Source: Clostridia bacterium (GTDB taxonomy: Bacteria > Bacillota > Clostridia > Christensenellales > UBA1242). From it: a stretch of 64,000 bases of DNA. The notes under the pieces are model-generated. The model made no database searches, was not told the origin of the DNA, and saw nothing but the letters and a program-made list of their open reading frames with translations. The translations under genes and the position numbers were made by a program. The stretch covers positions 6,966 to 70,965 of the forward strand of contig JAZRRE010000030.1 of the NCBI GenBank assembly GCA_045650505.1, read 5' to 3'. Numbering within the stretch: position 1 is the stretch's first letter; every line of letters begins with the position of its first letter. Shown here piece by piece: positions 4,157-52,562 of the stretch.

Positions 4157-4179
4157 AATATCTCCACAAGTTTATTATA

Positions 4180-4216
4180 TAAAAAAGCCAAATGATTGTC
4201 AATTAATCACTTGGCT
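4180..4216 (-). terminator. intrinsic terminator closing the 4244-10772 operon
   Basis: Imperfect 11-bp stem AGCCAAATGATT/AATCACTTGGCT (4186-4216). On the minus strand it is followed by a U-run (A-run 4181-4186 on plus). Confidence 0.65.
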
Positions 4217-4243: not shown

Positions 4244-4519
4244 TTATTTTCTTGCCATTTTATTTTCAGTTTTTATTCTTCGTTTGTTAAGAATAAAATA
4301 AACCAAAACTGCAGCAATTGCAAGAATGTTAAGCACACCAGCAAACACATTTAACCCCACAAAACCATCAAACAAATTCACTGAATTTCGCGAGATTTTC
4401 ACAAACTGAACGATGTCAAAAATAATCATAAACAAATCAAACAAAACAACAATCGAAATTAATGAAAATAGAATCAAAAACAACTTGTCATTTTTAAATT
4501 TATATATAAGTCTATTCAT
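4244..4519 (-). CDS. small membrane protein (2 predicted TM helices), last gene of the operon
   Basis: 91-aa ORF with two hydrophobic stretches. Its ATG overlaps the TAG of the upstream gene (ATGAATAG). Confidence 0.5.
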   Translation of the reverse strand: MNRLIYKFKNDKLFLILFSLISIVVLFDLFMIIFDIVQFVKISRNSVNLFDGFVGLNVFAGVLNILAIAAVLVYFILNKRRIKTENKMARK

Positions 4520-6593
4520 AAATTCTCACCTCACTAGGAATGTTGTTTATGTTGTCAACCTTAATAAAATATATTTCATCGTTTGCAATCATTTCAAATG
4601 AATAAGCAACTTCCGTTCCAAATACATCATAAACAGTTGTAAGTCTGCCATAGGCTGAAGCATCAATCGAACTTCCTGCAACATAATAATTTGATTCAAT
4701 ATAATTATAAGCTTCGCCAAGTTCAACTCTGCCCATAAATTGATAATAAATTCTTGAATTTCCAATAAAACCAGCAACTGCACCATAAGCCTTAATTATC
4801 TTCTCAACTTCTTGAGGCTTATTTTTAAATTCAACTTTTGAATAACAATTTTCAATCAATGCGTGATTATTTGCACCAACCACACCACCAACATAAGCTA
4901 TAACTTCATTTTCTTTTGTGCTGTTTGTATCCGCTTCGATTTCACCTTCAAATCCCGAATAAGTGATTTGTGTCTCATTAAAAGCAGCAACACCACCAGC
5001 ATAAACAGCTGACTTTTTGCTCTTTGCATAAACTTTTCCGGTTGATTTTGATTTCTTTATTTCACAAACAATAAACTTTCGTTCATATCCATTTTGAACT
5101 TGAACTTCATAAGAATAATTATCATCAACAACATTAAACGCAGCAATTCCACCAGCAAAAACAATTGAAATATCACCTTCTGCTACAATTTCTCCATAAT
5201 TATTTGAATTTAAAATCTTTTTATAATTATTGCAAACAATGCCGCCTGCATAAACGTGAAATTCTTGTTCTGCATCAGCAGTTTCTCTGGTTGATTTTGA
5301 GGTGATTTTTGCATTATTCACACAATTTTCAATCACAGCATAATTTTGCATTGAAATACCCGCACAGTTTGGGTGCCATTCTTTGTTTGAAATTTGATCA
5401 AGTTCTACATTATTTTCACAAGCAGAAATTGTTCCATAATTTTCTCCAGCAATTCCTGAAAGGTCAACAGTGTCAGCCTCAAATTTTGCTTCAAGTGTTT
5501 TTGAATTGGCAATTGTTCCTTTATTTACCCCAGCAATTCCTGAAAGATAAGCATTTGTTTCACCAAGATTAGTTATCACTGAATTCAACTCAACTTGAAC
5601 ATTATCAATAGTTCCTAAATTTTCTGTTGCTACACCAGAAACAAAAATATCTTTAATTTCTCCATCAATGTTTTCTGAATTAATTTTACCTTTTATAATG
5701 CCAGAAAAATCGCAATTTTGAATTATTCCTGTGTTATTTTCTGCTAAAATTGCAAAATTTTTCATAAATTCTCTATCTTTAAATTCAAATTCAAAATTAA
5801 CATTATCAATTATTCCTGATAAGTTTTTAATAAGAGAATCACTTTGCTCACCATTTATCACAATGGTTTTATCATTACCAACAATCGTTCCGGAAAACTC
5901 ATCAACTGAAAAATCATTTTCAAGCATAATGTCATTTTCAAGAACATAATATCTATAACCTTTTTTAAGTGCAAGTTCAAATTCACTTGCAGTTGAAATA
6001 TGCATTGGGTTATTTTCAGTTCCAACACCAAATAAATTTTTCATTACCACAACAGAAACAAACGATAACACCGACATCACAATTAAAATTGCAGCAGTTG
6101 TTCCAGCAATTAGTTTTTGTTTAAAATTGAATTTCTTTGCTTCGCATTCAAACTTTTCACGAGTTGCTGTTATTTGAATTTTATTATTTAAATTGTAAAT
6201 TTTATGAAGATTTTGCAAAATTTCTTCATTTTTAAATAAAAATTTATATTTTTGTTTAATGAGTTTTCTCTCATCTAAAATGCCAAGCATTTCAAGTGGA
6301 TAAACAATTTTATCACTGCAAGCATAAAGCCTGAGTGATTTTTTTGCACATCGTTTAAAGTCTTTATAAATTTGAAAATATTCCGGCACAACATCAAACT
6401 TATTTATCGGCATTAAATATTTTTCATATTTCAAAAGAATTTTATAAGACTTATATAAATAACAAAGAGATAAAATTGGAAACCTTCCAAAACAGATGTT
6501 AAGATCTGATTTAGACAGCATAAAAGAAGTGAACAATTTTTCATTGTCACTCTTTATTGCTTCATAAAGTTTTATCAGTTTTTCTCTTTCCAT
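4512..6593 (-). CDS. single-pass membrane protein: cytoplasmic N-domain, TM helix, extracellular beta-helix-like repeat region (GLUG-like)
   Basis: TM segment LIAGTTAAILIVMSVLSFVSVVVM. Recurring units YLSGIAGVNKGTI, DLSGIAGENYGTI, YAGGIVCNNY, FAGGIAAFN, YAGGVAAFN, YVGGVVGANN. Confidence 0.6.
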   Translation of the reverse strand: MEREKLIKLYEAIKSDNEKLFTSFMLSKSDLNICFGRFPILSLCYLYKSYKILLKYEKYLMPINKFDVVPEYFQIYKDFKRCAKKSLRLYACSDKIVYPLEMLGILDERKLIKQKYKFLFKNEEILQNLHKIYNLNNKIQITATREKFECEAKKFNFKQKLIAGTTAAILIVMSVLSFVSVVVMKNLFGVGTENNPMHISTASEFELALKKGYRYYVLENDIMLENDFSVDEFSGTIVGNDKTIVINGEQSDSLIKNLSGIIDNVNFEFEFKDREFMKNFAILAENNTGIIQNCDFSGIIKGKINSENIDGEIKDIFVSGVATENLGTIDNVQVELNSVITNLGETNAYLSGIAGVNKGTIANSKTLEAKFEADTVDLSGIAGENYGTISACENNVELDQISNKEWHPNCAGISMQNYAVIENCVNNAKITSKSTRETADAEQEFHVYAGGIVCNNYKKILNSNNYGEIVAEGDISIVFAGGIAAFNVVDDNYSYEVQVQNGYERKFIVCEIKKSKSTGKVYAKSKKSAVYAGGVAAFNETQITYSGFEGEIEADTNSTKENEVIAYVGGVVGANNHALIENCYSKVEFKNKPQEVEKIIKAYGAVAGFIGNSRIYYQFMGRVELGEAYNYIESNYYVAGSSIDASAYGRLTTVYDVFGTEVAYSFEMIANDEIYFIKVDNINNIPSEVRIYE

Positions 6594-6600
6594 TTATTAC

Positions 6601-7317
6601 CTATTTCTTTTTTGTTTTAACTTGTCTATCTTCTGCCCAACGATCTAAAATTTCAAAGATATATTCTTCATTGACATCTTGTTTTTCAACAATCTTTTTG
6701 AGAAGTTCATTTGAAGAGGCATAAGTTTCAGCAAGTGCGTCAATGCTCTTCTTTTCTTCTTCAAGGCGTTTTGCAATATTCTCATTGCCATCTTTGATTG
6801 ATTGAATTGACTTTGTGTTAGATACAATATTTTCAGCAACATCTCTATTGATAAAATCACCAACAGTTTGAAGGTTCGCATTATAAGCATCTAAACTTTT
6901 TTCAAGTTCTTTAATGTTATAATTTCTGCGTTTTTCTTCAAGCAAGGTATCAAGTCTTCCAATTTGTTCTTCTGCTCTTTTTTCAATGTCATTGATTGCA
7001 GTGAGCCTTCCCTCAACACTTTCAAATTTTGAAATAATGCTTTCAACACCTTCGGTATATTTTCCCGACATTCTCAAAAATTGATCAACTTTTCGAACAA
7101 GTTCTTCAGATTTTTCTGCTTGACTTGCAAGAAGTTTATAAATCTCTGAAAGTTTTGCTTGAACATCTCCAGAAAACGCTTCATCAAGTTTATCAACATC
7201 GTTTTTCATCGCAACATAAGTATTTAAAAATTCATGCATATCTGCTTGAATTGGAACAAGCATTTCACGATATCCAACAAACGCGTCAATAAGAGCATTA
7301 ACTTCATTATTGTCCAT
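6601..7317 (-). CDS. coiled-coil protein of unknown function
   Basis: 238-aa ORF with heptad-like charged sequence throughout. Its start overlaps the helicase stop by 1 nt. Confidence 0.55.
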   Translation of the reverse strand: MDNNEVNALIDAFVGYREMLVPIQADMHEFLNTYVAMKNDVDKLDEAFSGDVQAKLSEIYKLLASQAEKSEELVRKVDQFLRMSGKYTEGVESIISKFESVEGRLTAINDIEKRAEEQIGRLDTLLEEKRRNYNIKELEKSLDAYNANLQTVGDFINRDVAENIVSNTKSIQSIKDGNENIAKRLEEEKKSIDALAETYASSNELLKKIVEKQDVNEEYIFEILDRWAEDRQVKTKKK

Positions 7318-9773
7318 TATTTTTTCTCCTTAAATTTTTTATTTAATTCTTTGAATTTTTCTTTGATTATTCTGTGATTTTCTTGCATCTCTTTAAGGTC
7401 TGCTTTAACCACATCAACAATGAGTTTTTGTGCTTCATCATTGTCATCAAAATCAACATAAAACTTAACAATTTCAGCATCAAGTTTAGATTTGTTTTTA
7501 CCTTCTAAATTCTCTAAAAACTCAACAAGTTTTGTGTCTCCAGAAATTGCAAATTGTTCTTTTGCTTCATGAATAAGCCCAGCTTTCCAAAGTTTGATTC
7601 CGGCATCTTTGTTTCTACCTTTAAACACAAACTTTTCAAATGCTTCAATCTTCTCGTTTTGCTGAATCCTGATTTCATCATCTTCAAACTTATCGGCATA
7701 AAACCTTGCGTTGTCAAATTGACCAAGTTTAATAAATTCGGCAATACGCTCGAGTATTTCATCATCATCAATTTCTATCTTGCTGATAACTTCAGTGAAT
7801 TTCTTATAAGTTTCTTCACCGTTTAAATTTTCAAAATTATCTTTAAAGAAGTCACCAAAAAGTTTAATTTCATCATTTTCAAAAACAAACAAGTTGTGTT
7901 TAGCACGCGATACACCAACATAGAACAAGTTGAAATAATATCTAAACACAGAGTTTTCATCAGCTTGTTTATGATTGATGTTAAACTCTTCCAAAATCTT
8001 CCACTTATCTTTATTTGATGAAAGCACATTATAAAGCAGAACTGTGTCACGCTCAAGCCCCTTAACTTCACTTATTGTCAAAATTTCTTGCTTTCTGAAC
8101 AAATCACGAAGTTGTTGTTTTTGCTTTAAATCATTAACCAAAATTGTGAAGTTTTCAAACTTTTGATTTTTAAGTTTTTTAGCAAAACCCTCATCTGTTG
8201 AATAAACCACATTTGTAAGGGCATCTTCATCAACACTCTTTCCTGTTAAAACGAAACTGTGTGTTCCAAATTGCTTTGTGTTTAAATCACTCAAATCATC
8301 TAAAATCTCAACAATCTTTTTGTTATTTCTATAATTGCTTTCAAGTTCGGCAACGCTTGTTAAGTCTTCATCATACATAAGGCGTTTGAGATATGCAAAA
8401 CTGAAATATGATGGGTTTATCATTTGAAGTGCATCGCCAACAGCAAACATTTTGATTGAAATCTTTTTAAATAAATTCAAATTCACTTCAGTGAAATCTT
8501 GAACTTCATCAATAATTGAAAGTGAATATTTTTTAATTTTTTGACTATTTTCTAATAATTTTCGTGATATTTTGTTGTTGTCATAAAGATTTTGCGTTTT
8601 TTGATATTCAGCGTAAAGTTTCGCAATTCCATAAATCACTTCACACTCATTTGCTGAAAAACTATTTTCTCTTCTTCTTTTATATTCTTCAAGGTCTAAC
8701 ATTTGAGCAGTTTCATTTTCAGTCATCGCACCAAAAATTAAACCATAAACTTCTTTATAAATGATTGAATAAGATAAATTTTTAATTTTATCAAGCCTAC
8801 TTTTGAGTTGGTGATTGCTTACATTTTTCAAGAACTCTTTAACAAAAGTATCCTCATCAGCCATTTCAACTTGTTCTTCAAACTCTCTTTTGTAAAGGTC
8901 TTCAATCAAATAATAATCAACATTGTTTTCTAAAAATTGAACAACCTTATCAAGTTTTTTAAGAAGATTGGTTTCGTTGTCAACAATCAAAAATATTCCA
9001 AGCCTGTTTTCAATTGCTGTTTTATGATTTTTATCTAAAAACACAATTCGATTGTTTCGATAATCCTCAATAAACTGCTTGATATTATTTTTGAAAAGTT
9101 CAATCTTGTTTTTAGTATCAACCAAAAGTCCACGCGAAAATGTGGTGTATAAAATTTTTCCGGTATAGTTTCTGCAAGCAACAAAAATAATTTTGCTTAT
9201 GCAAATATTTGTTTTTCCACTTCCCGCAACACCTTGAACCAAAAGGTTTTTATTTTCAATTTCAACAAGTTCTTGTTGCTTAAAATTAAGCATTGGAAGA
9301 TTCACATATTCGGCATTTGAAACAAAATAAACTTTGTTAAAATCAAGTTCACTTGCATCAGTCACCCAATCTTTCAAAACCACTTTGAAAATTTTTGAAG
9401 CACGCACATATTGATTCAGTCTCTGGTCGTTAGATTTTAAATCTTCAAAGCCACTTTCATCAGCAAAGAAAACAATGTCATAAGGCGCTATATTTTCATT
9501 GTTTTTAATTTGGAAACCAAATTTGAATAAATAGCAAAAGTTCTTGTCATAGGTTTCAACTTTGAAGCAGTTTGTGTCATCAGTTTGCTTGTCATACTTT
9601 TCTTTGAGGTCGCGTGCAAAAGTTTGCAAGCTTTCAGATATCTTCAATATAAATTTATCAATGCCGGCGATTTTTTTTGTTTGATAAAAAAACCTTTCAG
9701 TCTTGTAAATCTTTGTTTCACTTGAAAGGATTTGCTTCGTGGTATTAACTTCAATGCTATATTCAATATCCAT
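7317..9773 (-). CDS. SF1 (UvrD/Rep-like) helicase with unknown ~170-aa N-domain and ~150-aa helical C-terminal extension
   Basis: Helicase motifs in order: VQGVAGSGKTN (Walker A), IIDEVQDF (Walker B), VGDALQMI, ESNYRNNKKIV, EVKGLERDTVLLY, YVGVSRAKHNLFVF. Confidence 0.8.
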   Translation of the reverse strand: MDIEYSIEVNTTKQILSSETKIYKTERFFYQTKKIAGIDKFILKISESLQTFARDLKEKYDKQTDDTNCFKVETYDKNFCYLFKFGFQIKNNENIAPYDIVFFADESGFEDLKSNDQRLNQYVRASKIFKVVLKDWVTDASELDFNKVYFVSNAEYVNLPMLNFKQQELVEIENKNLLVQGVAGSGKTNICISKIIFVACRNYTGKILYTTFSRGLLVDTKNKIELFKNNIKQFIEDYRNNRIVFLDKNHKTAIENRLGIFLIVDNETNLLKKLDKVVQFLENNVDYYLIEDLYKREFEEQVEMADEDTFVKEFLKNVSNHQLKSRLDKIKNLSYSIIYKEVYGLIFGAMTENETAQMLDLEEYKRRRENSFSANECEVIYGIAKLYAEYQKTQNLYDNNKISRKLLENSQKIKKYSLSIIDEVQDFTEVNLNLFKKISIKMFAVGDALQMINPSYFSFAYLKRLMYDEDLTSVAELESNYRNNKKIVEILDDLSDLNTKQFGTHSFVLTGKSVDEDALTNVVYSTDEGFAKKLKNQKFENFTILVNDLKQKQQLRDLFRKQEILTISEVKGLERDTVLLYNVLSSNKDKWKILEEFNINHKQADENSVFRYYFNLFYVGVSRAKHNLFVFENDEIKLFGDFFKDNFENLNGEETYKKFTEVISKIEIDDDEILERIAEFIKLGQFDNARFYADKFEDDEIRIQQNEKIEAFEKFVFKGRNKDAGIKLWKAGLIHEAKEQFAISGDTKLVEFLENLEGKNKSKLDAEIVKFYVDFDDNDEAQKLIVDVVKADLKEMQENHRIIKEKFKELNKKFKEKK

Positions 9774-10772
9774 TTACACTCTCAAATCACTTGATATAAT
9801 ATTTAAATTTCCTGATAAAATTTCTTTTAAACCATAATTCTTTTTTGTTCTGTTATCAACAACTTTGTTTCTATCAAAATCAAAAATCAACACAGGTGTA
9901 TCTGCAAAAATTGCATTTTTTAATGAATTTCTTTGATTTTTTATATTTTTTTCTCTATTTTCTTTAGATTTTTGCAGTATTTTTTCTTTAAGTGCCGCCA
10001 TTGCTTTCTCTTTATTTTTGCCCTGACTTCTTTCATCTTGACACTCTGCAGTGATTCCCGTTGGAAGATGAATAAGTTTCACAGCACTTTCAGTTTTGTT
10101 TATGTGCTGACCACCAGCACCACTAGATTTTGAAATTTCAATCGCAATATCTTCTTCACGAAGTTCAATTTCTTTTTCACTGTCTAAAAGCACAACCACA
10201 AGTGCAGTTGTTTCGCTTGTGTTCTCTATTTTTCGAATTGTTCCACCAATCGATTTCAAAACTTCAAACGAATTTTCACCTTCAACACAAATTGAAATTT
10301 GCGAATCGGTTTCACTAATCACTTCGGTTTCAAATTTATTTAAAGAAGCATAATTTAAAACCAAATCTTTTAGTTCAAGAACAAGTCCACCATTTCCTTG
10401 TTTTTGTGAGATTTCAATTTTTGTTTTTTGAACTTCTTTTGAACCTTCATCAAAATAAATCTCTTTCACTTTTTCAAAAAGTTCATTTGATTCTTTTTCA
10501 AGATTTGCAGATGAACTTAAATATTCTTGTCTTTGAGTTTCATCAGTTTCGGTATCTGCAAGTTCTTTAGAAAGCAAAAATTCTTCATTCTTATTTTTAT
10601 ATTCTTTAAAAGCTGACACAACCTTTTCAAGTTTTGCCTTTGCCTTTCGATAATATTCAAAAAGTTTATTGTCTGACATAATTTCAACAGAGCATAAAAG
10701 TTCAAAATATTCATCATATTTTGCCTCCAACTCACAAAATTTATCATAATACTTTTGATTCACATTATCCAT
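9774..10772 (-). CDS. class-I peptide chain release factor homologue (RF1-like) with intact GGQ domain but no PxT/SPF decoding motif
   Basis: SSGAGGQHINKTESAVKLIHLPTGI...CQDERSQGKNKEKA is a canonical GGQ domain. N- and C-terminal regions resemble RF1. The only prolines are in HLPTG and DTPVL, both at or after the GGQ domain. Confidence 0.75.
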   Translation of the reverse strand: MDNVNQKYYDKFCELEAKYDEYFELLCSVEIMSDNKLFEYYRKAKAKLEKVVSAFKEYKNKNEEFLLSKELADTETDETQRQEYLSSSANLEKESNELFEKVKEIYFDEGSKEVQKTKIEISQKQGNGGLVLELKDLVLNYASLNKFETEVISETDSQISICVEGENSFEVLKSIGGTIRKIENTSETTALVVVLLDSEKEIELREEDIAIEISKSSGAGGQHINKTESAVKLIHLPTGITAECQDERSQGKNKEKAMAALKEKILQKSKENREKNIKNQRNSLKNAIFADTPVLIFDFDRNKVVDNRTKKNYGLKEILSGNLNIISSDLRV

Positions 10773-10778
10773 AATAAC

Positions 10779-10807
10779 ATAATAACAAATATTTCTTTAT
10801 TTTTCAA
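10779..10807 (-). promoter_or_regulatory. sigma-A type promoter placing +1 on the ATG of the RF-like gene (leaderless geometry)
   Basis: TTGAAA (10807-10802), 17 nt, TATTAT (10784-10779), 6 nt, ATG (10772). No SD. Confidence 0.55.
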
Positions 10808-32923: not shown

Positions 32924-35227
32924 TTAATTTTTCAATAAATTTACACCTATAATGGTCATATCATCAAGATGTTTTTGATTCAAGCTTTCAGCATCAAACA
33001 GAACATTATCTAAAAACTTTTGCATATTATAAATTTTCGCATCATTGATAAATGTTGCAAATGATGCCACTGATGAAAATGAATCAACCACACCATCACT
33101 TGCAAGAAAAATTTTATCACCTGCAAAAAATTGCTTTCGAATGATTGTTGGCTTTGCATTTTCAATAATTCCAATAGGCAAACTATCGCACTTTATTAAT
33201 TCGCTAGTATTTTGATGTTTTAACACAGAAACACTTGCTCCAAGTTTAATAAATAAACATTCATTTAAATCAAGGTCAATAACCACAGCATCAAGGGTGG
33301 TGAAACTGTCAAGCCCCGCAGGAATCAAGAGTTTGTTAACCGATTCTAAAACTAGCCTTGAATCAAGCCCCACTTCAAACATAGACTTAATTAAATCAAG
33401 CACCATTTTAGACATTCGGCTGGCCTTTTCACCATGCCCCATTCCATCGGCAATTGCCACAAAATAACGATTTTCTTTTAATTTGCAAATCACAGCATTG
33501 TCACCATTTTTCTGTTCTTTTGCTTTTGATGCAATCGAAAACTGCACATCGATTTTTGATTTTATGGTGAATGATGCCAAACTCAAACCCGATTGCTCTA
33601 AATGATAAATCTTGTTGAGCTTAACCGAATTTTTTGCCACCTTTGAAACATTAAACGCCATTTCTTTTTTCAGAATTTCAACATTCGGTGCAATAATATT
33701 AATCTCCTCAATTCCACTTTGATTTTCAAAAATCATACACTCTTTCGCATCAATGAGTGAATTAATTAAGCTTTCTTTGAGTTTTTTTGATAATTTTTTA
33801 TTGATTTTTGCATTATTTTTTATATTATTTGCAAAATTTTTAAATATGTCTGCAAAATTCCCAATCTCACTTGAAATGATAAGTTTGCTTTCATCTTCGT
33901 TTTTTGTTGCTTTTTCATACTTCAAAAACAACCTTGCCATTTGATTGATTTCAGTTGCAATAATGCCTGATTTTGAACAATAAGTTTGAATTCCACTCAT
34001 CATATCACCCGCATCAATTTCTTGTTTTTGAATGGCTTTAAGAAGCATATTTTCAAACATTTCTTTTTTATTAATATTTTCCAAAAAACAATGCCTATAG
34101 TTTTCACAATTTGCACAACACTTATTAATCACATCAATCGCAAGTTCTTTACTTGCCTTGTTTCTATCAAGCTTGCCAATCAGCAAATCTTTAAAACAGC
34201 TTTGCATTTTAGTTAGAATTGATGACATATAAAATAATCTATTTTTTAATTCAAACACTTTTCTGTCTTGATGATTTTGAATAATGATATTTGAAGCATC
34301 ATTTTCAAAAAGCCCAGAAAATTTATCAACGAACTTATTTGGAAATAAAATATAAATAAAAAACGCAAAAAACACAGAAATAGTATTAAAAATATTGAAA
34401 TTTTTAAAAATTAATAATAAAAGTAACGAAATGGTAAAATTAAAAAATGCAAACAACCATTTATTTAAATCTTTAATTAGCACACAAGCCAGCCCAAAAA
34501 CAATTCCAAAAATAAATAAAAATCCATCAGCTGAAACAAAAATTTCACCAAGCAACACAACAATTAAGCCAATTAAAAATCTATCAATTGGCAAAATTTT
34601 AACCCCGAAAATTATAAATAAAACAATCAAAAATAGACCCAAATATTTCTCAATAAAACCAAATGAAAATATTCCAAGGGCTAGAAGCATTACCATTATC
34701 GAAAAAATAAAATAATCATTTTTGCTAAACTTATAAAAAATTAGTTTGTTTTTATATGTTTTTTTAAATTTATAAAAATACAAAAACACAATTGCTTGAA
34801 TAACAAAATTTATTAAAAATGCCACAATATTTTCAATTGAATCAATTGAAAAATAAAGTCTCAAAACATTAGATAAACACACAAAAACTTCTGCAACCAA
34901 AAGTTTTTTCTTTGGCTTTAAATATTCATTTGCAAAACAATAAAGTGATAAAAAGACAATTTCATAACCCAGAATAAACATATCTTTAAATGTGTTAAAA
35001 GTGTAAATTTTCGACAAGGCATAAAACAAGGAAACAAGAATAATATTTCCACCAAAATAAACTTTATAAAAAGCAAAAGCAAGCCCCACAGGACTCAAAA
35101 AACCAAATAAATTAATCTTTGAAAAAATCATCTGCAAAACAAAATGCAGATAAATTTTCATAATCACTTTCAACTTTTGCTTGTTCATATACTTCATAAT
35201 AAACAAAAGCAAATTCAAGTCTTTCAC
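32924..35227 (-). CDS. spoIIE: stage II sporulation protein E-like: polytopic membrane domain plus PP2C phosphatase
   Basis: About 10 hydrophobic segments in the N-half. C-terminal PP2C motifs IADGMGHGEKAS and LASDGV. The track start is GTG; the true start is uncertain and may be an internal ATG. Confidence 0.7.
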   Translation of the reverse strand: MKDLNLLLFIMKYMNKQKLKVIMKIYLHFVLQMIFSKINLFGFLSPVGLAFAFYKVYFGGNIILVSLFYALSKIYTFNTFKDMFILGYEIVFLSLYCFANEYLKPKKKLLVAEVFVCLSNVLRLYFSIDSIENIVAFLINFVIQAIVFLYFYKFKKTYKNKLIFYKFSKNDYFIFSIMVMLLALGIFSFGFIEKYLGLFLIVLFIIFGVKILPIDRFLIGLIVVLLGEIFVSADGFLFIFGIVFGLACVLIKDLNKWLFAFFNFTISLLLLLIFKNFNIFNTISVFFAFFIYILFPNKFVDKFSGLFENDASNIIIQNHQDRKVFELKNRLFYMSSILTKMQSCFKDLLIGKLDRNKASKELAIDVINKCCANCENYRHCFLENINKKEMFENMLLKAIQKQEIDAGDMMSGIQTYCSKSGIIATEINQMARLFLKYEKATKNEDESKLIISSEIGNFADIFKNFANNIKNNAKINKKLSKKLKESLINSLIDAKECMIFENQSGIEEINIIAPNVEILKKEMAFNVSKVAKNSVKLNKIYHLEQSGLSLASFTIKSKIDVQFSIASKAKEQKNGDNAVICKLKENRYFVAIADGMGHGEKASRMSKMVLDLIKSMFEVGLDSRLVLESVNKLLIPAGLDSFTTLDAVVIDLDLNECLFIKLGASVSVLKHQNTSELIKCDSLPIGIIENAKPTIIRKQFFAGDKIFLASDGVVDSFSSVASFATFINDAKIYNMQKFLDNVLFDAESLNQKHLDDMTIIGVNLLKN

Positions 35228-49646: not shown

Positions 49647-52562
49647 TTAGTCAAATCTACCAACTTTTTCATTTTTGATGTTAGTATTTGTTTTAGCAGT
49701 AATGTTTTTACCTGATTCATTCCATGTTACAGTAACTCTTGTTGCAGTGCAACTTGTGCAAGAAGCAACATTGTCTAAACAACCAATTAATTGACCTGCA
49801 TCTCTGTCAGCATCAACTGTGCAATCTGTTGCTTTGCAACCAGAAATTGAAGCAGTTGCAGAAGCATTGTTTGTTCTAGCAAATTGTCCAACAATGATAC
49901 CAACTTTATCACCAGATTCATCAGCATCTAAATATACACAACTTGCAGAAGCATTTTTAACTTCTGCTTTTGAAATGTTTGAGTTAAGTGAGAAACCAAC
50001 AACAACACCAACATAGTGGTTGCCATCAACTTCAGCACCATTAACTTTAACATTCTTAATTTCAGCAGAAACAATGTGACCAAATAAACCAACACCTGTT
50101 GCAGCATTTGCGTTAGCAGCACCACCAACAAAAGTTGTTACCTTAAGGTTATAAACTGTTTTGCCATTACCATCAAATGTTCCACGGAAAGAAGCACCAA
50201 ATTGAATAACTTCAGAGAAGTTGCTGTAACCATAGCCGATTGGAGTCCATTCAATGTTGTCTAAATCAATATCTTTAGCAAGTTTGATTGTGTAACCATC
50301 AAATGTGTTGCCAGCATTAACTGCTGCAGCAAATGCTGCAAATTCATCAGCTGTGTTGATTGTGATTACATTATTAACAGCGGTTGGAAGAGTTCCAACT
50401 GTTCCTTTCCATAAACTGATTGTTGCAGAATCTCTACCAAGAACTTCGTTCTTAATATTTTCACCTGTGCTTGTTCCGTTTGCAGAAACAAGAACAGCTA
50501 CAGCAGAAACATTTCTTAAAGTTGTTGAACCTGCAGCGCAACCTACAACTTGACCAGCATCTCTTCCTGCTTTTACTCTTGAAGAACTAGCAGAAATTCC
50601 ATTTGCATTAACGTGTGCAGCATAACCAATAAGAGCACCCGCTTTGTCGCCATCTTCATCTTCATTGAAGTGTGTGCAATTAATTGTTGCATTCACAACT
50701 GAACAATTTTCAACTGTTGTTTTTGATGCCCAACCAATAAGAGCACCAACAAAGTGGTTACCATCAACTCTTGCACTATCAATTTTTACATTTTTGATAA
50801 CTGCTGGATCGTTTGTGCAACCAAATAAACCAACACCTTTTGCTGCTTTAGCTGCAGGAGCACCACCAATAAAGTTTGTGATTTTAAGATTTGAAATTGT
50901 AAAATTCTTTCCATCAAATGTTCCAGCAAAATAGTGTGTGGTTGTGTTTGCACCAGAACCATAACCAATTGGTGTCCATTCAATGTTGTTTAAATCAATA
51001 TCATTTGCAAGTTCAATAGTTTTTCCAGCAAATGTGTTGCCTTCGTTAACAGCTTTTGCAAAAGCAGCAAGTTCATTAGCTGTTGAAATAACAATTACAT
51101 TTTCTGTTACTTCAGCAGGAAGTTCACCTGTTCTGCCAAGCCATAAATCTTTGCCTAAAACTCTTCTATTTGCACCACATTCGTTGCAAGAACTATCACT
51201 ATCATTTGAATATGTGTGATTGTGATATGCTTCAGCGTTTTCAAAACTCATTGCACTGTAACCACTAGCACTTTCTAAAATTGCATCATCAACAATATTA
51301 ACAAATGCATAACTGATTCTGTCAGCAGCATTTTTATATGTGCTGAATTCTTCAATAGCGTGTTTTGATTTACTAACAAATCTGCCACCAGAAATATCAA
51401 CTGTTAAAGCCTTTTGATAACCAGCAGCTGGAACTGTGTTATAACCAACACATGAATCAACGATTAAAGCAGAACCTGTTGGATAGAATCCACTTCCATT
51501 ATGGTCTTTTTCAAAAGTATCATCACCAACTGCTTTTACTGTGCAGTTTGTGAAGTAATGGTGACCACTCTTTGCATAATAACCTGTGAAACCTTCAAAA
51601 TAACAATTTTCATAAGAATAAATAACTTTTCCTGAAGCTAAATATACACCAGCAGAAACATCATCATAAGTTGGACCTACAACTTTTGTTCCAATAAATT
51701 TGCAATCTTTAGCGTTAACAGTTGTGCTACTTGAATAGTTTCCGTTTGAAGCAAGAGAACCCCAATAACCTTTAAATGTTACATTTTCGAAATCAATATC
51801 ATAAATATTGTTTGTTTTAAGAACAACTGTGTAATCGGTTTCATTGTTAGCAAAACCAACAATTGATTCAGCATTTGATGAGTTGAAAATTGAAAGTTTA
51901 ACAGTTTTGTCTGTTGTGAATGTTCCATTTGGTTTTTGAGTTCCAAGACCATAATAAGCACCTGAAACAGGGAATTGAGAAAGGTCACTTGCAATCAAGA
52001 TATATGAATTGATGTCATAACCATTAAGGTCGATTGCAATATCTTTGTCTTCATCTTTTGGGAAGATAAGAACTGGAGCAACCTTATTTCCGTTTGTTGT
52101 GTCTCTAACCATTTCGATATTGCCATCAAGTGTAATCACATGGTTTTTGTCAGTCACTTGAATTGCACTGTTGAGTGCAGCAAAATTTTTAACCGAAATT
52201 GGTGCTCTTTTAATTTCGAATGTTGTTGTGAATTCGAGATTAGCAGCAAGCACATCACTATCTGCGTTAGACTTAACAACAACTGTTGCAATACCTGCAT
52301 CAACATTGTTAAGATATTCAACAGTATAGTTATCACTTGTGACAATTTCATCATCATAAGTTAAAGTTACTGATGGTTCTTTTTCTGTGCCATCATAAAC
52401 AGTGCTTTCATAAGCAAGTGTAATGTTTTCTGATGCCATTGTGCTTTGCTTTGTTGCTTCATTTGATGGGTCTTTTTCACCATTGTCACAAGCAGCTAAA
52501 GAAAATGCCATTGGAAAAATCATACAAATTGCTACGAATAGACTTAAGATTTTCTTTTTCAT
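49647..52562 (-). CDS. large surface lipoprotein: MBG-like (YDG) domain, beta-helix region, two tandem GLUG-like modules
   Basis: Lipobox FSLAAC after a signal peptide. TVYDGTEKEPSV near the N-terminus. Two ~245-aa internal repeats. Confidence 0.7.
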   Translation of the reverse strand: MKKKILSLFVAICMIFPMAFSLAACDNGEKDPSNEATKQSTMASENITLAYESTVYDGTEKEPSVTLTYDDEIVTSDNYTVEYLNNVDAGIATVVVKSNADSDVLAANLEFTTTFEIKRAPISVKNFAALNSAIQVTDKNHVITLDGNIEMVRDTTNGNKVAPVLIFPKDEDKDIAIDLNGYDINSYILIASDLSQFPVSGAYYGLGTQKPNGTFTTDKTVKLSIFNSSNAESIVGFANNETDYTVVLKTNNIYDIDFENVTFKGYWGSLASNGNYSSSTTVNAKDCKFIGTKVVGPTYDDVSAGVYLASGKVIYSYENCYFEGFTGYYAKSGHHYFTNCTVKAVGDDTFEKDHNGSGFYPTGSALIVDSCVGYNTVPAAGYQKALTVDISGGRFVSKSKHAIEEFSTYKNAADRISYAFVNIVDDAILESASGYSAMSFENAEAYHNHTYSNDSDSSCNECGANRRVLGKDLWLGRTGELPAEVTENVIVISTANELAAFAKAVNEGNTFAGKTIELANDIDLNNIEWTPIGYGSGANTTTHYFAGTFDGKNFTISNLKITNFIGGAPAAKAAKGVGLFGCTNDPAVIKNVKIDSARVDGNHFVGALIGWASKTTVENCSVVNATINCTHFNEDEDGDKAGALIGYAAHVNANGISASSSRVKAGRDAGQVVGCAAGSTTLRNVSAVAVLVSANGTSTGENIKNEVLGRDSATISLWKGTVGTLPTAVNNVITINTADEFAAFAAAVNAGNTFDGYTIKLAKDIDLDNIEWTPIGYGYSNFSEVIQFGASFRGTFDGNGKTVYNLKVTTFVGGAANANAATGVGLFGHIVSAEIKNVKVNGAEVDGNHYVGVVVGFSLNSNISKAEVKNASASCVYLDADESGDKVGIIVGQFARTNNASATASISGCKATDCTVDADRDAGQLIGCLDNVASCTSCTATRVTVTWNESGKNITAKTNTNIKNEKVGRFD
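49650..51146 (-). repeat. in-frame tandem duplication inside the lipoprotein gene (unit A 50415-51146, unit B 49650-50414)
   Basis: Unit A: LWLGRTGELPAEV..NELAAFAKAVNEGNTFAGKTIELANDIDLNNIEWTPIGYG ... IKNEVLGRD. Unit B: LWKGTVGTLPTAV..DEFAAFAAAVNAGNTFDGYTIKLAKDIDLDNIEWTPIGYG ... IKNEKVGRFD. Confidence 0.8.

Follow-up and report, generated by a model that had tools for sequence, protein, structure and literature searches.

On the minus strand of a 64,000-nucleotide (nt) stretch of DNA from a Clostridia bacterium of the order Christensenellales (UBA1242; contig JAZRRE010000030.1), the whole of which is called the window here, five genes are packed with near-zero spacing between positions 10772 and 4244 in the list of open reading frames (ORFs). 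They encode a relative of the class-I peptide release factors (RFs), a superfamily 1 (SF1) helicase, a helical protein and two membrane proteins; with the signals at either end of the operon, they are as follows.

9774–10772, minus strand: RF-like protein, 332 amino acids (aa), full-length class-I RF (RF1) paralogue
7317–9773, minus strand: helicase, 818 aa, SF1, UvrD/PcrA type
6601–7317, minus strand: helical protein (CC), 238 aa, coiled-coil or helical-bundle
4512–6593, minus strand: large membrane protein (BIG), 693 aa, predicted single-pass, with a GLUG β-helix
4244–4519, minus strand: small membrane protein (SML), 91 aa, two transmembrane segments
10779–10807, minus strand: promoter-like site, sigma-70 type, TTGAAA-17-TATTAT, TG-extended, 10/12 match
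4186–4216, minus strand: terminator-like hairpin, 12-bp stem, 7-nt loop and T-run, starting 27 nt past the last stop codon

The TAA of the RF-like gene abuts the ATG of the helicase gene (9776–9771), the helicase and CC genes overlap by 1 nt (position 7317), CC and BIG are separated by a 7-nt gap (6594–6600), and BIG and SML share an 8-nt overlap (ATGAATAG, 4512–4519); junctions of this kind indicate translational coupling of the predicted genes. The −10 box of the promoter-like site ends 6 nt ahead of the ATG of the RF-like gene, where a Shine–Dalgarno (SD) sequence is absent. Since promoter-like sites are frequent in AT-rich DNA, as in the window itself (49 found vs 37 expected in shuffles), such a match alone means little. 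The call is supported by the conservation of its layout: −35 and −10 boxes ending 6–7 nt before the ATG, with no SD, are kept in eight relatives (loci L001, L003, L004, L006, L008, L011, L018 and L019) that have diverged to 30–70% identity in their RF-like proteins. With the −10 box so close to the ATG and no SD, the first gene is probably expressed from a leaderless mRNA. A similar −10-to-start layout is seen at the window genes starting at 1339, 19224, 21917 and 37396, and a clear SD precedes 26 of the 46 window genes. At the other end, a perfect 12/12 sigma-70 promoter (TTGACA-17-TATAAT) lies at 4202–4174 on the minus strand, directly ahead of a HAD-family gene; the HAD gene thus has a promoter of its own, and the operon ends at 4244 with the 91-aa gene. 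This second promoter (4174–4202) overlaps the terminator hairpin of the operon, making a compact terminator–promoter arrangement. The GC content of the operon is the same as that of its surroundings, so that no compositional island is evident; no regulatory RNA was found within it in Rfam, and the sole repeats detected are the rung repeats of the β-helix of BIG. A compact five-gene operon with these junctions, a promoter and a terminator had been described in a first-pass annotation of the window, and the ORF and signal checks agree with it throughout.

The same block is found across the order. A scan with the helicase alignment, in which each GTDB species was represented by one genome, gave matches in at least 230 genomes. 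The best 80 were kept, with matches at 37–98% identity, and all of them are metagenome-assembled genomes labelled Christensenellales, Christensenella, Catabacter, Clostridia or similar. Block content was then scored with purpose-built hidden Markov models over 89 loci, which cover ~20 kb per genome. The gene order RF-like, helicase, CC, BIG recurs in 80–89 independent loci, and for this reason the clustering exceeds chance. The helicase is present in 89/89 loci, CC (after the helicase) in 85/89 and BIG in 79/89, and the RF-like gene adjoins the helicase in 80/89, lying directly upstream in 79 and divergently in L039. The median intergenic distances within these four genes are −4, −4 and +7 nt, and the gap between the RF-like and helicase genes is 20 nt or less in 61 of 79 loci. 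Loci without an RF-like gene next to the helicase mostly coincide with contig ends; four of them (L020, L023, L087 and L089) have enough upstream sequence to be informative, and in these CC and BIG are also present where the sequence allows. No substitute for the missing gene was found in the four, the upstream genes encoding an MBG-domain protein, ABC transporters, a PadR regulator and an alanine dehydrogenase.

Homologues of the RF-like protein at 70%, 50% and ~43% identity stand in an identical five-gene order with identical flanks. In the closest sublineage these flanks consist of relA, a DNA-alkylation-repair gene and a divergent gpsA on one side and the HAD gene, rubrerythrin and tmk on the other; the neighbours seen are housekeeping genes, namely relA, gpsA, tmk, gatAB and an aminoacyl-tRNA synthetase gene. 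The flanking genes are conserved in the closest sublineage only, whereas the block itself is conserved across the order, and no extra neighbour accompanies it order-wide (the largest cluster of flanking genes, ABC transporters, occurs at 8 loci). The pairwise-identity matrices of the four block proteins correlate over 68 genomes (rho 0.48–0.71), which is consistent with their inheritance as a unit. With the single CC protein of the window as query, the CC family comprises 77 clusters among 1.84 billion representative proteins, and the module is therefore lineage-restricted. No member of the block families was found in a phage collection or in viral contigs, and the plasmid collections hold remote relatives of the helicase core only and no other block member, so far as these searches extend; altogether, the block looks vertically inherited. 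The first-pass annotation had allowed that orthologues of the five genes might not be co-localized in other genomes, and the opposite, order-wide co-localization, was found; the housekeeping character of the flanks and the lack of a nuclease or toxin domain (Pfam and NCBIfam), both pointed out in it, also hold.

The RF-like protein matches the Pfam families RF-1 (104.5 bits) and PCRF (36.7 bits, residues 15–178) above their cut-offs, and the NCBIfam prfA models over its full length but well under theirs (TIGR00019, 160.8 bits vs cut-off 400; NF001859, 152.4 vs 423.25). Scores are lower still with the models of prfB (125 bits vs 370) and PrfH (TIGR03072, 86.7 bits vs 166.65), and that of ArfB matches residues 199–234 only (45.3 bits vs 100); the same rank order, with prfA ahead of prfB, prfH and arfB, is given by 26 diverse members of the family. 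The GGQ motif (residues 220–222) is present in 77/77 non-identical orthologues, in which G220, G221, Q222, N225, R248, S249 and N253 are invariant. It belongs to a 45-residue core that is 85–100% conserved at S216, G218–Q222, N225, H235, P237–G239, C244, D246–Q250, N253 and A257; the mean top-residue frequency is ~0.78 over residues 211–255 vs ~0.3–0.5 elsewhere, domains 1, 2 and 4 averaging 0.34–0.38. The GGQ domain aligns almost position by position with those of the Thermotoga maritima and Thermus thermophilus RF1. In the decoding hairpin, compared with the same two proteins, PVT (the PxT motif) is replaced by ENT and the six residues GGRIHT are deleted. None of the signatures GRIHTS, SPF, IRTYNF and YNFPQ occurs in any orthologue (0/77), nor does the GTGGxEA tip of helix α5 (0/81 sequences), which reads the first base of the stop codon. 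The PxT/GRIHTS region is hypervariable among the orthologues, differing in length and sequence with many indels; since a factor that read a fixed new codon would be expected to keep these loops constant, such reading is improbable. These profiles and alignments identify the protein as an RF1 paralogue that is full-length, keeps GGQ intact and has lost all three stop-codon-reading elements, so that what had been read off the window protein alone is true family-wide.

Genes of the order end in TAA, TAG and TGA; the RF-like protein therefore cannot be its terminator, and the canonical RF1 and RF2 functions are presumably supplied by other genes elsewhere in the genome. Within the window the 46 ORFs use TAA 41 times, TAG five times and TGA not at all, and the missing TGA is most likely due to its rarity at low GC content. 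Stop-codon recoding with loss of RF2, considered on account of this count, was dropped, as close and distant relatives use TGA stops.

The helicase consists of an α/β N-terminal domain (NTD, ~1–150), an SF1 core (~160–640) and a helical, weakly TPR-like C-terminal domain (CTD, ~650–818). Pfam assigns UvrD-helicase (PF00580, 37.9 bits vs cut-off 23), AAA_19 and UvrD_C_2 to it, and across 82 orthologues 129 positions reach at least 95% conservation, among them the motifs Walker A GSGKT (184–188), DExQD (DEVQD, 422–426), GDALQ (446–450), NYR, KGLER and YVxxxRA with the motif VI arginine. Judged by these motifs, the predicted enzyme is an active ATPase under strong constraint; in distant genomes its median identity to the window protein is 44%, vs 23% for the RF-like protein. 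In the AlphaFold2 (AF2) model, the confidence of which is medium (mean predicted local distance difference test score, pLDDT, 73.7), the α/β fold of the NTD is confident. A Foldseek search with the model returned generic SF1 structures, UvrD and PcrA first, followed by RecB, HelD, IGHMBP2, SETX and Upf1, at template-modelling scores of ~0.2 and 11–13% identity, and the profile matched PcrA, UvrD and HelD in the PDB weakly (best E 1e-5 over ~85 residues; HelD, E 0.0016 over 47 residues). The NTD is predicted by AF2 to be α/β, not a coiled-coil arm like the one that HelD inserts into the secondary channel, and no relative of the first 160 residues was detected, the PDB giving no match; the last ~180 residues are helical, with weak TPR matches in a few members. 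On this evidence the helicase belongs to the UvrD-like superfamily of SF1 at the domain level only, and its N- and C-terminal domains remain as unassigned as they had been in the first-pass annotation.

Among annotated proteins, those closest to the core are of the UvrD type, 950–970 aa long, with C-terminal ankyrin or TPR repeats (27% identity, E 7e-28), which points to a wider SF1 subfamily with repeat scaffolds. Such relatives are located on an Escherichia coli plasmid (NZ_CP010123.1; L090, 5233–8145), in Cetobacterium (L091, 5179–8040) and on more than 100 Shigella plasmids, being common on those of the virulence type, and the E. coli copy adjoins inovirus-type Gp2 and AlpA genes.

CC is all-helical, and its matches in Pfam and the PDB are to generic coiled coils and helical bundles only. 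Its conservation is comparable to that of the helicase, with 21 positions at least 95% conserved and fixed motifs at both ends (L9, F13, Y16, R17 and P22 near the N-terminus; Y219, D225, W227, A228 and R231 near the C-terminus, followed by a short basic tail), and it is probably an adaptor. BIG is modelled by AF2 with high confidence (pLDDT 92.8) as a helical cytosolic NTD (1–137), a transmembrane helix (157–188) and a right-handed β-helix (~197–690) of regular three-strand rungs. The predicted topology places the N-terminus inside, with one transmembrane segment and the β-helix outside the cell. The Pfam family Glug is matched at 22.3 bits vs a cut-off of 20.5, and the top Foldseek matches are the β-helix of the Streptococcus pneumoniae IgA1 protease and BACOVA_03286 (6xja, 3n6z and 6xjb; E 7e-3, prob 1.0); the 693-aa protein had thus been rightly taken for a membrane β-helix. 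Its cytosolic NTD contains an invariant GRFP motif (residues 36–39), and the ectodomain evolves fast, the whole protein having a mean pairwise identity of ~30%. Assignment of the NTD as ankyrin was tried and rejected (hhalign prob 0.07 against a consensus designed ankyrin protein; Ank_2 in 1/26 members, at E 0.016; ankyrin structures in Foldseek at rank 36 or below, E >1), and a likeness of GRFPLLSL to the ankyrin motif GxTPLHxA was not substantiated. SML has two transmembrane segments and basic ends. A hydrophobic ORF of 68–119 aa overlaps or abuts the 3′ end of BIG in 48 of the 74 testable loci, and the small two-transmembrane ORF is absent after BIG in most of the more distant loci L040–L072, where it may be shorter than 50 aa, fused or truly lost; SML is regarded as an accessory part of the block. 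By the searches described above, the helicase NTD, CC and the cytosolic domain of BIG are new families.

No match to the block was found in PADLOC or NCBIfam, in the collections of phage, plasmid and viral sequences or in the literature searched, in accord with the earlier statement that it resembles no known operon or defence system. For bacteria, a broad survey of the release-factor families published in 2019 recognizes only RF1, RF2, ArfB and PrfH (PMC6514570). No described system joins an RF paralogue to a helicase and membrane proteins, and the block appears to be a new kind of system assembled from known superfamilies, its function being predicted. The closest functional precedent is PrfH–RtcB, followed by ArfA–RF2 and BrfA–RF2 and by ArfB; the RF-like protein fails the defining features of each of these, as it does those of RF1 and RF2. 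PrfH is likewise an RF paralogue with an intact GGQ motif and a non-canonical recognition domain, is encoded in an operon with a nucleic-acid enzyme and acts on ribosomes lacking a normal stop signal (PMC6514570, PMC9304027). However, PrfH is devoid of RF domain 1, whereas the RF-like protein keeps the PCRF domain; the partner of PrfH is the ligase RtcB, in place of the SF1 helicase; and PrfH–RtcB has no membrane components and is sporadic and horizontally spread, in clear contrast to the order-wide, vertical-looking block. RtcB was not found among the contexts for which Pfam gene tables are available. ArfB (YaeJ) and ICT1 hydrolyze peptidyl-tRNA through GGQ independently of a stop codon, as is proposed for the RF-like protein, but ArfB consists of the GGQ domain by itself, followed by a linker and a basic C-terminal tail, whereas the RF-like protein has all RF domains, no such tail and only 36 residues that match; moreover, ArfB is reported to be absent from Firmicutes (PMC6514570). 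In ArfA–RF2 and BrfA–RF2, a partner replaces the codon and activates a full-length RF, which is the logic proposed here, although it is the normal RF2 of the cell that is used and not a dedicated paralogue. None of the ArfB, ArfA–RF2 and BrfA–RF2 systems has a helicase or a membrane partner.

The mtRF1 protein of vertebrate mitochondria is an RF1-type duplicate with changes in PxT and the helix tip and a retained GGQ (PMC3418547). It thus resembles the RF-like protein as an RF1 paralogue in which the decoding motifs are altered and GGQ is kept. In mtRF1, the changed motifs are themselves conserved, and they have later been linked to the reading of non-standard stop signals. Those of the RF-like protein, in contrast, are shortened and not conserved, which argues against any fixed new codon. 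Conceptual likenesses are offered by the pairing of eRF1 with Upf1 (the SURF complex of nonsense-mediated decay, NMD), in which a termination-factor fold meets an SF1 helicase, and by Vms1/ANKZF1 of ribosome-associated quality control (RQC), a peptidyl-tRNA hydrolase that carries repeat as well as coiled-coil modules and works with an ATPase at a membrane. These analogies are in idea only, since eRF1 and Vms1 have the unrelated archaeo-eukaryotic RF fold without homology, and the block helicase is nearer to SF1A (UvrD/PcrA) than to Upf1, although Upf1, IGHMBP2 and SETX appear at similarly weak Foldseek scores. With UvrD, PcrA, Rep and HelD the block helicase has in common the UvrD-helicase domain of Pfam and every SF1 motif, but it departs from them in its unique NTD, its repeat tail and a very low overall similarity. 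The UvrD-type proteins of the Shigella and E. coli plasmids and of Cetobacterium share motifs such as IDEVQD, GDAxQ..PS.FS and NYRN as well as C-terminal repeat scaffolds, but are stand-alone proteins of 953–970 aa with no RF-like, CC or β-helix neighbours. GajB models of the Gabija system match the helicase weakly and partially, and neither a GajA-type OLD gene nor an ATPase-nuclease gene lies in the operon or its conserved flanks. The ectodomain of BIG is a right-handed GLUG β-helix of the same type as those of IgA1 protease and BACOVA_03286, but BIG has neither an M26 protease domain nor an LPXTG signal, and its N-terminal transmembrane segment anchors the helix to a cytosolic domain.

We tentatively favour, as a plausible though somewhat less than probable reading, that the block is a vertically inherited, membrane-associated module of the Christensenellales in which stop-codon-free release of nascent chains is coupled to an ATP-driven helicase. 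With no need to read a stop codon, the RF-like protein would hydrolyze peptidyl-tRNA on ribosomes, its GGQ entering the peptidyl-transferase centre; the domain probably still targets this centre, because the residues kept are those of canonical RFs. Since the protein cannot pick its substrate by codon, it would have to be recruited or activated by partners, and these would choose the substrate, much as RF2 depends on ArfA or BrfA. The SF1 helicase may bind or clear the nucleic acid of the target ribosome, most likely mRNA, or license the RF-like protein in an ATP-dependent manner. It is assumed that CC and the repeat tail of the helicase serve as adaptors bridging to the cytosolic domain of BIG, which would hold the complex at the membrane, with the exposed β-helix as an anchor or sensor and SML assisting BIG. 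As a net outcome, ribosomes at the membrane that are stalled or selected would release their nascent chains independently of a stop codon, and ATP-driven remodelling would be coupled to this. That the proteins act in one complex, with RNA as the helicase substrate, stalled ribosomes as the targets and the membrane as the site, we infer. Membrane-bound ribosomes and the RNase Y degradosome of Firmicutes are both found at the membrane, where cleavage generates non-stop complexes, and we speculate that this setting is one rationale for the location.

Several points weigh against this reading. Assembly into one complex and contact with the ribosome are deductions only, and an extracellular β-helix of ~500 aa is of no obvious need in ribosome rescue, its role being left unexplained by the reading we favour. 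The helicase is, if weakly, closest to the DNA helicases UvrD and PcrA. The RF-like gene is not beside the helicase in L020, L023, L087 and L089, which shows that the remaining three can occur with no RF-like neighbour. The RF-like protein is fast-evolving outside the GGQ domain (the median identity of 23% to the window protein in distant members), which could indicate dispensability. Finally, a second RF gene (prfA or prfB) was found neither in the window nor in the loci retrieved, a result that at ~20 kb per genome says little. A bolder proposal appears doubtful to us: that the protein represents a fifth bacterial family of class-I RF paralogues and supplies the catalysis in a complex for translation surveillance that is tethered to the membrane and driven by the helicase. 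Such a complex would be a convergent counterpart of NMD and RQC and would free nascent chains from ribosomes that have stalled on damaged mRNAs or on mRNAs at the membrane, perhaps upon an extracellular cue received through the β-helix.

The first-pass annotation had suggested a surveillance module for ribosomes or nucleic acids, for example rescue or an abortive response coupled to a membrane effector. Its ribosome-directed part is strengthened by the conservation of the GGQ domain, which binds the peptidyl-transferase centre, while still resting on deduction; an abortive response is disfavoured by vertical inheritance, synteny in the sublineage and absence from the phage, plasmid and viral collections, and a membrane effector is not supported, as BIG looks like a surface β-helix with a cytosolic docking domain and unlike a pore or toxin. 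In an anti-phage, abortive-infection or conflict system, the β-helix would sense phage attachment or envelope damage, the codon-blind RF would abort translation globally, and the helicase would attack or sense the invading nucleic acid. Weak matches of the helicase to PADLOC GajB-type UvrD models (best E 9e-13), the fast evolution of the RF-like protein and the extracellular part of BIG (~30% mean pairwise identity), a membrane protein with a small transmembrane protein as in a common effector layout, and the remote core relatives beside mobile-element genes on Shigella and E. coli plasmids are in line with this possibility. Nevertheless, we consider it unlikely: PADLOC gives no system-level match, with none at all for the RF-like protein, BIG and SML and nothing beyond the weak GajB hits and coiled-coil noise for the rest; as far as seen, each of the best 80 genomes, out of at least 230 matching species representatives, has a single locus, the chromosomal position of which is syntenic in the sublineage; the block looks vertically inherited, with no compositional island and is absent from the phage and viral collections; Pfam and NCBIfam detect no nuclease, pore or toxin domain; and the conservation of the helicase and CC is more housekeeping-like than defence-like. 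A mobile or defence island was likewise dropped, there being no phage or viral members, only remote core relatives on plasmids, and noise in PADLOC. Outside-in signalling, in which the β-helix binds a ligand such as a cell-wall or host glycan and the cytosolic domain sequesters and then releases the helicase, CC and the RF-like protein for the reprogramming or pausing of translation or transcription, has a similarly low probability in our estimate. BIG is indeed built like single-pass anti-sigma or sensor proteins (an NTD with GRFP, one transmembrane segment and a large variable ectodomain), and the helicase carries a protein-interaction repeat tail. However, the operon encodes no DNA-binding, sigma or kinase domain, the RF-like protein being its sole recognizable output, and a GGQ factor as a signalling output is without precedent; moreover, the idea overlaps with the favoured explanation and is inseparable from it by sequence alone.

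Two further explanations turn on the RF-like protein itself. The helicase, CC and BIG may form a DNA-directed machine for repair, replication–transcription conflicts or chromosome–membrane attachment, carrying the RF-like protein as a passenger derived from a decaying prfA duplicate. Among solved structures, the helicase comes nearest to the DNA helicases PcrA and UvrD and to HelD, which associates with RNA polymerase; four loci lack an RF-like gene next to the helicase, and the RF-like protein is the fastest-evolving member of the block. Against these stands the expectation that a decaying duplicate would retain neither GGQ in 77/77 orthologues, with a near-invariant 45-residue core throughout the order, nor tight junctions with the helicase (61/79 gaps of 20 nt or less), which makes this explanation rather improbable. 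Least of all can we credit, and we regard as highly improbable, that the protein is the divergent but functional RF1 of the lineage with functionally unrelated neighbours. Although its best full-length profile matches are prfA models, the score of 160.8 bits compares with a cut-off of 400; the three codon-reading elements are gone, and the region is hypervariable with indels, which is incompatible with a fixed codon, and genes of the order end in TAG as well as in TGA. The lack of another RF gene in the window and the fetched loci, which might seem to speak for it, says little at only ~20 kb per genome.

Stop-codon-independent release in bacteria is accomplished by tmRNA, by ArfA or BrfA with RF2, by ArfB and by PrfH–RtcB. 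If the favoured reading is true, ribosomes would be rescued or controlled here in a new manner, by a full-length RF without a decoding head that is strongly constrained in its catalytic core and coupled order-wide to an active SF1 helicase and a membrane protein exposed at the surface. No earlier case of a termination-factor paralogue linked to a helicase would then be known in bacteria. In the gut microbiota of humans and ruminants, the Christensenellales are prominent and heritable, and a conserved, order-specific translation module could serve both as a lineage marker and as a physiological handle. The loci L020, L023, L087, L089 and L039 are natural variants, informative on whether the RF-like gene is dispensable or relocated.

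Two other genes of the window may be mentioned. An ORF of 971 aa at 49647–52562 on the minus strand has a good Shine–Dalgarno sequence and no Pfam match at E ≤ 1e-5. At 32924–35227, also on the minus strand, a SpoIIE-like protein with SpoIIE_N and PP2C phosphatase domains is encoded, in a lineage usually described as non-sporulating.

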